Shown: positions 48,458-48,928 of the stretch, piece after piece | Layout: each line of letters begins with the position of its first letter | Numbering within the stretch: the stretch's first letter is position 1 | Assembly (NCBI GenBank): GCA_044892505.1 | Contig: CM097882.1 | Location: 552,306,737 to 552,360,000 of the forward strand | Direction: 5' to 3' | Length of the DNA stretch: 53,264 bases | From: Schmidtea nova | Taxonomy: Eukaryota | Translations under genes and position numbers: made by a program | Notes under the pieces: model-generated | The model's input: the letters and a program-made list of their open reading frames with translations, nothing else | What the model was told of the DNA's origin: nothing | Database searches by the model: none

Positions 48458-48928
48458 ATGCTGACCAACATAAATTATAAAGGTAAATGCTCAGTTTCGC
48501 ACATGAAATTTCCAATGGAGAAACCACAACAAATTGTCGATAGAAGTGGAAAGTATCCGATTTTATTTTTCAAATCAGGTAAATGTCGAATAATGGGGTG
48601 CAAAGAACCTTTAAAAATTGAAGATTTACAATATACAATTGAAGATATTCAAATTCAATCAATTACAGTAACTGCAGATATAGGATCCCGTGTTAATTTA
48701 AATTTATTATTGAAGAAAACTAATTGTGTTTATGAACCAGAAATATTTCCAGCTTTGAGATATTCTAAATTTAATCCATTATGTGTAAACGTTTTTGCAA
48801 GTGGCAAAGTAGTAATACTTGGTATTAAAACCTTGGATTATCATGAATTGGTTGAACAAATTATTAACGAAATAAAATCGATGAATGAGGAGGAAGATTT
48901 CCTAAACTTTTTGCTAAGTATTACCTAA
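48458..48928 (+). CDS. TATA-binding-protein-like protein
   Basis: Two TBP-like half repeats: ILFFKSGKCRIMG and IQSITVTAD...YEPEIFPALRY...VNVFASGKVVILGIK. Confidence 0.8.
   Translation: MLTNINYKGKCSVSHMKFPMEKPQQIVDRSGKYPILFFKSGKCRIMGCKEPLKIEDLQYTIEDIQIQSITVTADIGSRVNLNLLLKKTNCVYEPEIFPALRYSKFNPLCVNVFASGKVVILGIKTLDYHELVEQIINEIKSMNEEEDFLNFLLSIT

Follow-up and report, generated by a model that had tools for sequence, protein, structure and literature searches.

A gene for a TATA-binding protein (TBP) inside a Polinton raises the question of what such an element does with a TBP of its own, and the initial annotation of this locus offered two answers, a promoter-recognition factor for the late genes or a decoy of host TFIID. 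The window referred to below is the whole stretch of Schmidtea nova DNA that was analysed, with a length of 53,264 nucleotides, and the features that bear on this question are collected in Table 1.

Gene content and copies of the element

The element spans 15.5 kb, with terminal inverted repeats starting at 35902 and ending at 51403, which have identical 14-nt ends and are masked in their inner parts. It carries the marks of a Polinton, namely AG..CT ends, long terminal inverted repeats and a 6-bp target duplication, AGGAGA, and Pfam matches were obtained for pPolB, the integrase, the A32 ATPase and the adenoviral protease. Regarding the capsid, a weak match to DJR-like_dom (E 0.039) was found in one of eight homologues, with no PDB sequence match, and the 139-aa ORF may, as a guess, be a Maelstrom-like nuclease. 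The model of the 149-aa ORF resembles the ssDNA-binding proteins Enc34, T7 gp2.5 and ASFV CP312R (Z 6.4-7.4), and the ESM Atlas gave no usable match for this ORF, which often adjoins the TBP gene. In having terminal repeats, the 6-bp duplication, pPolB, integrase, A32 ATPase, protease and likely capsids, the element is similar to the Polintons, Mavericks and adintoviruses described in the available text of PMC8502044 and 10.1101/2023.08.22.554363.

Table 1. Features of the element and its surroundings in the window (positions counted from its first letter)
Feature	Position	Strand	Remarks
Left terminal inverted repeat	35902..36526	+	readable part, N follows; begins AGTAG; AGGAGA at 35896-35901
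Protein-primed DNA polymerase B (pPolB)	37041..41110	-	PF03175 (DNA_pol_B_2), E 2e-30; interrupted in this copy
139-aa ORF	42576..42995	-	conserved in related elements; no Pfam match
Adenovirus-type cysteine protease (Peptidase_C5)	43015..43413	-	PF00770, E 1.5e-5; GT-AG intron-like gap after short first exon
TATAAACA box	43026..43033	-	in protease tail, 38 nt before 139-aa ORF
Likely major capsid protein, 406 aa	43457..44677	-	position, size, conservation
130-aa conserved ORF	44674..45066	-	
TATAAACA box	44712..44719	-	in 130-aa ORF tail, 42 nt before likely major capsid ATG
Likely minor capsid (penton), 340 aa	45059..46081	-	position, size; no profile match
TATAAACA box	45160..45167	-	about 100 nt before 130-aa ORF
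Retroviral-type integrase with chromodomain (rve, chromo)	46051..47117	-	Pfam; split by short GT-AG intron-like gap
ATAAACA box	46118..46124	-	in integrase chromodomain, 43 nt before likely penton ATG
ATAAACA box	47182..47188	-	71 nt before integrase ATG; second one at 47273
Basic ORF, 178 aa	47185..47721	-	probable core protein
A32-type packaging ATPase	47742..48365	-	Pox_A32, E 1.4e-6
TATAAACA box	47749..47756	-	within ATPase 3' end, 35 nt before 178-aa basic ORF
ATPase-TBP spacer	48366..48457	.	92 bp, 89% AT, between divergent starts
TATAAACA box, candidate element-TBP site	48391..48398	-	33 nt before ATPase ATG
TBP gene	48458..48928	+	156 aa; repeat 1 trimmed, repeat 2 whole with acidic stirrup
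Small Cys-cluster ORF	49027..49396	+	with intron-like gap
Canonical TATAAATA	49589..49596	+	ATTGG at 49557; before likely ssDNA-binding gene; probable host-type (early) promoter
Likely OB-fold ssDNA-binding protein, 149 aa	49631..50080	+	fold match, middling
Right terminal inverted repeat	50790..51403	-	readable part; AGGAGA at 51404-51409

Short GT-AG gaps occur in the integrase, the protease and the Cys ORF and, being intron-like, they point to splicing and, probably, to host Pol II. Four runs compared with the element consist of contigs and show, among those listed, no joint at these gaps, which speaks neither for nor against splicing. The integrase gap was also considered as a break of this copy, which was rejected, the same gap being common to other families of the genome. 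As to the spacer between the ATPase and TBP genes, its length and AT-richness agree with the initial annotation; its head-to-head layout, singled out there, is incidental, since 13 of the 15 related loci possessing both genes are co-directional and 2 divergent.

In the search of the element's own genome, the best 150 of 19,239 candidates were scored, all 150 being 99-100% identical and without a stop, and 30 loci, the window included, are 97.8-100% identical over about 3.1 kb. The spacer pattern matches 2,402 + 2,396 places (variable gaps may double-count) against 2 + 0 for the control, so the element is present in the genome as thousands of copies in several families.

Some side observations concern the element and its neighbourhood. 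A short frame, MGQ...CC, at 46948-47184 (minus strand) precedes and overlaps the integrase start, and the MG(N/Q)...CC peptide recurs in other families, looking like a lipid-modified virion peptide, as its form may suggest. The likely penton gene is tandemly duplicated in three separate elements (L041, L119-L120 and L133). Other loci (L113-L118; G000:C3:89.73 Mb, C1:127.08 Mb) have pPolB frames of ~1,240 aa, in some cases arranged as inverted pairs, without further Polinton genes in the surrounding 10 kb, and are likely polymerase-only derivatives. In addition, Polinton contigs binned into bacterial MAGs (L132-L134) are likely eukaryotic or viral contamination. Within the window, an 18-nt tandem repeat (VLVDNE-type) lies in the N-terminal part of pPolB (40571-40714), a recently inserted LTR retrotransposon, which has gag/pol frames and whose 300-nt repeats are identical and spaced by 5,418 nt, occupies 12356-18073, and mariner-like transposase pieces are found to the right of the element (52271-52945).

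The element-type TBP

Both the Pfam search and the structure prediction proposed for this ORF returned TBP. Residues 63-140 match the Pfam TBP family (PF00352) with an E-value of 2.3e-18 and 66.2 bits against a cut-off of 22.9, with no separate match for repeat 1 in the scan of the 156-aa ORF, and among proteins with solved structures 35 TBPs match it in sequence, with E from 3e-17 to 1e-10. The AlphaFold2 model, built from 92 homologues, has a pLDDT of 95.9; used in Foldseek, it gave 44 matches with E <= 0.001, all TBP among the matches listed, and in VIA-align its residues 1-144/147 cover both repeats, yeast 66-240 and human 164-337, with Z 12.9 and rmsd 2.5, the first unrelated fold following at Z 6.1. 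The ESM Atlas also returned TBP clusters for the ORF. Thus, as judged by profile and predicted model, the ORF at 48458-48928 is confirmed as a TBP homologue, a PF00352 member with the two-repeat saddle fold, and the two-repeat signature read from the sequence at the outset stands.

FFKSGK in repeat 1, and YEPEIFPAL and VFASGK with both Phe of repeat 2, are all present in the product, as had been noted. Yeast numbering was counted on a fungal TBP from N69, which we take to be a proper anchor. It agrees with I194, V203 and L205 in the available text of PMC1636458 and, once shifted by 42, with the Arabidopsis numbering in that of PMC13566119. The shortening of repeat 1 where its other Phe should lie was borne out by the spans between fixed residues: N69-F116 comprises 35 aa (family median 38) against 48 in 20/20 cellular TBPs, and F116-N159 31 aa (median 32) against 44 in 20/20, the Phe99 column being a gap in all 60 element-type proteins, which therefore have three intercalating Phe and not the canonical four. 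G125-Q158 measures 21 aa against 34 in canonical TBP, and the model lacks a helix there, where the basic H2 of repeat 1 should be; repeat 1 of the model has no long helix, with H1/H2 and the N-stirrup reduced. This shortened form is common to the 92 aligned homologues, and full-size members of the clade (160-190 aa) retain a helix-length segment at H2. The repeat-1 helices of TBP bind TFIIA, TAF1, Mot1 and Brf1, helix H2 being the main docking surface for TAF1 and Mot1.

Compared to a canonical TBP, the protein departs in three marks, the four Phe, the hydrophobic face and the basic helix H2, and keeps the acidic stirrup. The hydrophobic minor-groove face (N69/N159, T124/T215) is replaced through V122R, T124M, L205N and N159S/T, each present in 60/60 element-type proteins, joined in the trimmed group by V71N (25/26), I194R (24/26) and V203C (26/26). 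F116, F207 and E188 are retained in 60/60, F190 in 59/60 and E186 in 52/60, and the stirrup pattern [ED]PE[LIT]F occurs in 87/92 aligned homologues; E186/E188 in this acidic C-terminal stirrup are presumably the TFIIB contact. R196, which we take to be a phosphate contact, is not retained. According to the available part of PMC1636458, I194, V203 and L205 form the specificity trio of yeast TBP, changed in TBPm3 so that G is accepted at position 2.

In summary of its relation to cellular TBP (PF00352; PDB 1ytb, 7egb_P, 2z8u), the protein shares the two-repeat saddle, F116/F190/F207, the YEPE(L/I)FP stirrup and N69, but is only 24-30% identical, with repeat 1 ~25 aa shorter, Phe99 lost, no N-terminal tail and a polar DNA face (V71N, V122R, T124M, N159S, V161T, I194R, V203C, L205N), and its gene is carried by a mobile element.

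Regarding its distribution, the protein search gave 107 homologues out of 137 candidates, and the alignment holds the query with 91 of them, 16 partial ones being left out. Among 55 metagenome loci, 25 have a core Polinton gene and 11 the 149-aa or 139-aa ORF only; the survey of related elements that had been called for thus places other Polinton genes beside TBP at 36 of them, and the remaining 19 are contigs of 1.0-3.1 kb with no other Polinton gene. An element found via its capsid (L132) also carries the TBP gene, and the profile search of cluster representatives, of which the best 150 of 3,254 matches were considered, includes full-size relatives of 160-190 aa. A quick ML tree was built with SH-aLRT support from 95 hand-picked rows, comprising 26 trimmed, 34 more distant, 29 eukaryote-type (three host sequences) and 6 archaeal proteins; giant-virus and TRF2 sequences were left out, and a scan with P0348 for TBPs of giant viruses had found none. 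All 60 element-type proteins fall on a single branch with SH-aLRT 100 and a length of 1.06, so that within this sampling the element TBPs fall apart from host TBP and its paralogues, as the phylogeny was expected to decide. The exon of the host's own TBP is placed with those of two animals (SH-aLRT 90), pointing to an animal as the likely host. Database proteins are called element-type by their tree placement, with one full-size member, L079, located in a Polinton: this ORF (L079:25-537) has helix-length H1/H2 segments and adjoins a Polinton ATPase and integrase.

The host genome possesses a canonical TBP gene and three further TBP-like loci (L088/L092, L089/L091, L087/L090, L086), two of these three being strongly diverged and nearly intronless; all lie elsewhere in the genome and have full repeat spans. 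It also has at least two TFIIB-like and at least two Brf-like genes; the top PF00382 match, L098, was tried as TFIIB and rejected, since it is presumably Brf1-like instead.

A functionless piece of host TBP, captured recently or in decay, might account for a short repeat 1 that has no Pfam match of its own. Such a fragment is hardly compatible with the separate branch and full spans of host TBP and its paralogous loci, with a short form found throughout the 92 aligned homologues, nor with selection: the dN/dS of the TBP gene is 0.16-0.32 in 8/8 comparisons with other family members (three further loci were left out), indicating purifying selection, and that of the ATPase is lower, at 0.06-0.19 in five comparisons, both well under 1. 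Together with the 150/150 copies without a stop, this rules the reading out for practical purposes, and the view that the ORF is too divergent and too short for a recent host capture is upheld. The sequence data support a real, old, element-specific TBP, rather than a recent host capture or pseudogene.

The ATAAAC word in promoter regions

In this copy, no perfect TATAWAWR is present on either strand of the 92-bp spacer, and the nearest thing to a TATA for its TBP gene is TATTTAAA at 48434 (plus strand). Within the spacer, TATAAACA, read on the minus strand from 48398 to 48391, is the candidate target. Upstream of seven of the eight genes in the minus-strand block, ATAAACA is found, at -32 to -43 for five and at -71 and -100 for two; the protease of this copy has TATAAAT upstream, not ATAAAC, and pPolB a canonical TATA 54 nt before its start. 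As the ATAAAC hexamer occurs 26 times in the element, it is the position that counts. The TATAAATA at 49589, which the initial annotation put forward as a second site for binding assays, is probably not a target of the element TBP; it is a TATA of the ordinary kind, accompanied by a CCAAT box and placed ahead of the likely ssDNA-binding gene.

For the related elements, which are not independent samples, upstream regions of genes with a placeable start were cut, thinned by shared 12-mers and searched in a window of -80..-16. ATAAAC precedes the ATPase in 14/14 distinct genes (shuffled mean 1.1; 0/200 shuffles as high), the capsid gene in 7/8 (0.7) and the 139-aa ORF in 9/11 (0.7), as well as the protease in 4/5, the penton in 3/5, the integrase in 3/6, the basic ORF in 2/2 and, within the same window, the 130-aa ORF in 1/7; the L132 ATPase has no ATAAAC within 80 nt. 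Before the TBP gene the word is found in 3/40 (shuffled 2.0), where TATAWAW (21/40, shuffled mean 7.8), TCAYT (21/40, 4.2) and CCAAT (9/40, 4.0) occur, and the ssDNA-binding gene has TATAWAWR in 3/3 upstream regions. The variant TATA word is therefore confined to promoters of the structural-gene class, with an ordinary TATA/Inr for the TBP gene. Of the 36 boxes, 28 are preceded by T and 33 followed by A; the position is between -31 and -44 for 30 of them.

The word also falls inside coding sequence. It reads ATA AAC in 8/8 ORF tails before the capsid gene, with a codon-usage expectation of 0.06-0.21 each, and it falls in three different frames of the protease tail, a constraint at the level of the DNA. 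Besides, ATAAAC stands before the ATPase and before the next gene in the element of L079; since this member is full-size, the box appears to accompany the polar DNA face and not the trimming.

When host TBP recognises the box, a C at its position 7 has to form a Hoogsteen pair (PMC13566119, PMC4402545), and TATAAACA remains bindable (PMC13566119), while in the TBPm3 selections C was disfavoured at positions 6-9 (PMC1636458), as far as the available text of these papers goes.

Other words were noticed in passing. TTTGTTTTA(A/C)T recurs, as seen by eye, ~50-60 nt before TBP starts (L061, L066, L068, L071, L073, L075 and, in the window, 48397-48406); p53-like half sites (AAACATGTCT) are present singly at 49032-49041 and 42319-42328; and a CRE palindrome (TGACGTCA) at 41113-41120 directly precedes the pPolB start.

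A possible late-gene switch and its alternatives

What was seen directly comprises the TBP fold, the separate clade with its residue changes, and a box that divides the gene classes. On the reading that we favour with moderate confidence, the element TBP with its rebuilt DNA face is an early-made factor, which likely recognises the variant box and draws the TFIIB and Pol II of the host to the late genes. Host machinery would transcribe the TBP, pPolB and ssDNA-binding genes early from ordinary host-type promoters; the element TBP would then bind (T)ATAAAC(A), ~30-45 nt before the genes for packaging, capsid, protease and integrase; contacting host TFIIB via the acidic stirrup that it has kept, it would bring RNA polymerase II and turn these genes on late. 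Through the loss of the repeat-1 helices it may escape control by TFIIA, TAF1, Mot1 and Brf1. The earlier proposal of an element-encoded promoter-recognition factor for late genes has thereby gained a candidate promoter word before the packaging and capsid genes.

The fit of the protein change to the box change is loose, because L114, which clashes with a C in position 7, is still aliphatic in the element TBPs, while L205N, V203C and I194R face box position 2, where the box is canonical. It would be tighter with the protein reversed on TGTTTATA, an orientation in which TFIIB would face away from the gene. As a control, a Polinton lacking TBP was looked for: scans of viral_contigs with the TBP alignment, ATPase and capsid, and of the phage collection, gave no relatives; the search of the own genome with PF03175 and a distant ATPase returned the same clade, with six regions opened; and genome_contigs gave three loci, of which the one long enough has TBP.

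This last result leaves room for a host factor, either forkhead or host TBP with helpers, reading ATAAACA while the element TBP serves early promoters, terminal repeats or something else, as no TBP-less Polinton was found in the collections scanned. ATAAACA indeed fits what we take to be the forkhead consensus, RYAAAYA, with A after the core in 33/36 boxes. Host TBP, moreover, can accommodate the C of position 7 by Hoogsteen pairing, according to the available text of PMC13566119. Such a reading is nevertheless unlikely, as the boxes are TATA-like in their 5' T (28/36) and in the fixed core-promoter distance, -31..-44, of 30/36; the word is a mark of structural genes, being avoided before those for TBP and the ssDNA-binding protein, and the uniformly rebuilt DNA face of the element TBP needs a conserved non-host target. 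If instead the element TBP binds the box and represses, keeping late promoters shut and limiting the activity of the element, it may sit reversed on TGTTTATA like TBPm3: its changed trio, I194/V203/L205, is that of TBPm3 for G at position 2 (PMC1636458, available text), and the box, taken on its reverse strand, has TG at positions 1-2. Thousands of copies share the genome. A reversed seating would suit a repressor better. Repression seems improbable, since retention of E188 (60/60) and E186 (52/60), with the role given above, suggests a TFIIB-type partner, and one would have to explain otherwise how the late promoters work with no activator.

The decoy of the initial annotation, soaking up host TFIIB or competing at host TATA boxes and thereby damping host transcription or defence, is in line with the acidic stirrup being kept, and the lost Phe99 and R196 could weaken DNA binding. 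It has become less likely than it first seemed and is now quite improbable: helix H2, the main TAF1/Mot1 docking surface, is what was lost, so that the surfaces missing are, to our understanding, those that a TFIID decoy needs, and the DNA face has been rebuilt in a conserved manner, its invariant new polar residues and three kept Phe arguing for DNA reading. A decoy also leaves the box unexplained.

Returning to the late-gene switch, it finds a parallel in the TBP-like proteins of beta- and gammaherpesviruses (EBV BcRF1, KSHV ORF24, HCMV UL87), which read TATT late boxes according to the available text of PMC4893493 (see also PMC7498053). Both systems have an element- or virus-encoded TBP-like protein, a variant TATA word before structural genes and use of host Pol II, the latter probable for the Polinton. 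However, the herpesvirus TBPs have 500-1000 aa, act in a six-protein complex and are ~10% identical to TBP (PMC4893493, same limits), whereas the Polinton TBP is a stand-alone protein of ~150 aa with the word TATAAAC, not TATT, and no other general factor was seen; no proteins like those of the herpesvirus complex were found among the element ORFs of at least 80 aa scanned in Pfam. In structure, BcRF1 matches weakly (E 1.7e-3, TM 0.38), so the two are likely of independent origin, as far as the model indicates, and the Polinton protein does not belong to the herpesvirus family. The TBPs of giant viruses (Nucleocytoviricota) share the TBP fold, with 25 BFVD matches of E <= 0.001, but at 10-20% identity, below that to cellular or archaeal TBP. 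Giant viruses bring their own TFIIB and RNA polymerase, and the element, unlike them, shows neither.

In the literature, TBP appears in Starrett 2021 (PMC8502044) as an abbreviation in the legend text of Fig. 5, on MELD viruses with adintovirus-like PolB, so that the claim of TBP being absent from the standard Maverick gene set needs amending in view of this one label; the available text of that paper holds no family survey, residue analysis or promoter word for it. No TBP or TATA passages are contained in the available text of PMC11161782, PMC12220804, 10.1101/2023.08.22.554363, PMC11131425 and 10.64898/2026.10.13.758929, and no description of the family or the box was found in the searchable literature, though subscription papers, Repbase or the supplement slides of PMC8502044 could hold one. 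Within the literature searched, a viral-type TBP with a probable private late box is new for the Polinton class.

It is evenly balanced whether there exists a lineage of animal Polintons with a one-protein early-to-late cascade, in which a 145-160-aa TBP of altered specificity, lacking the host-regulatory surfaces, would act with a private TATAAAC box and host TFIIB/Pol II. A dedicated TBP with a matching word would bear both on how the capsid genes of animal Polintons are expressed and on whether these elements have a viral programme of their own, and the pair offers a sequence marker for early versus late Polinton genes. The protein is also a natural experiment, being a TBP without one intercalating Phe and helix H2, polar at the specificity positions and with the TFIIB stirrup kept, and a possible use would be as an orthogonal TBP-promoter pair. 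If true, the switch would amount to a counterpart, minimal and of independent evolution, to the late complex of herpesviruses, and would speak for an autonomous viral programme run by these Polintons.
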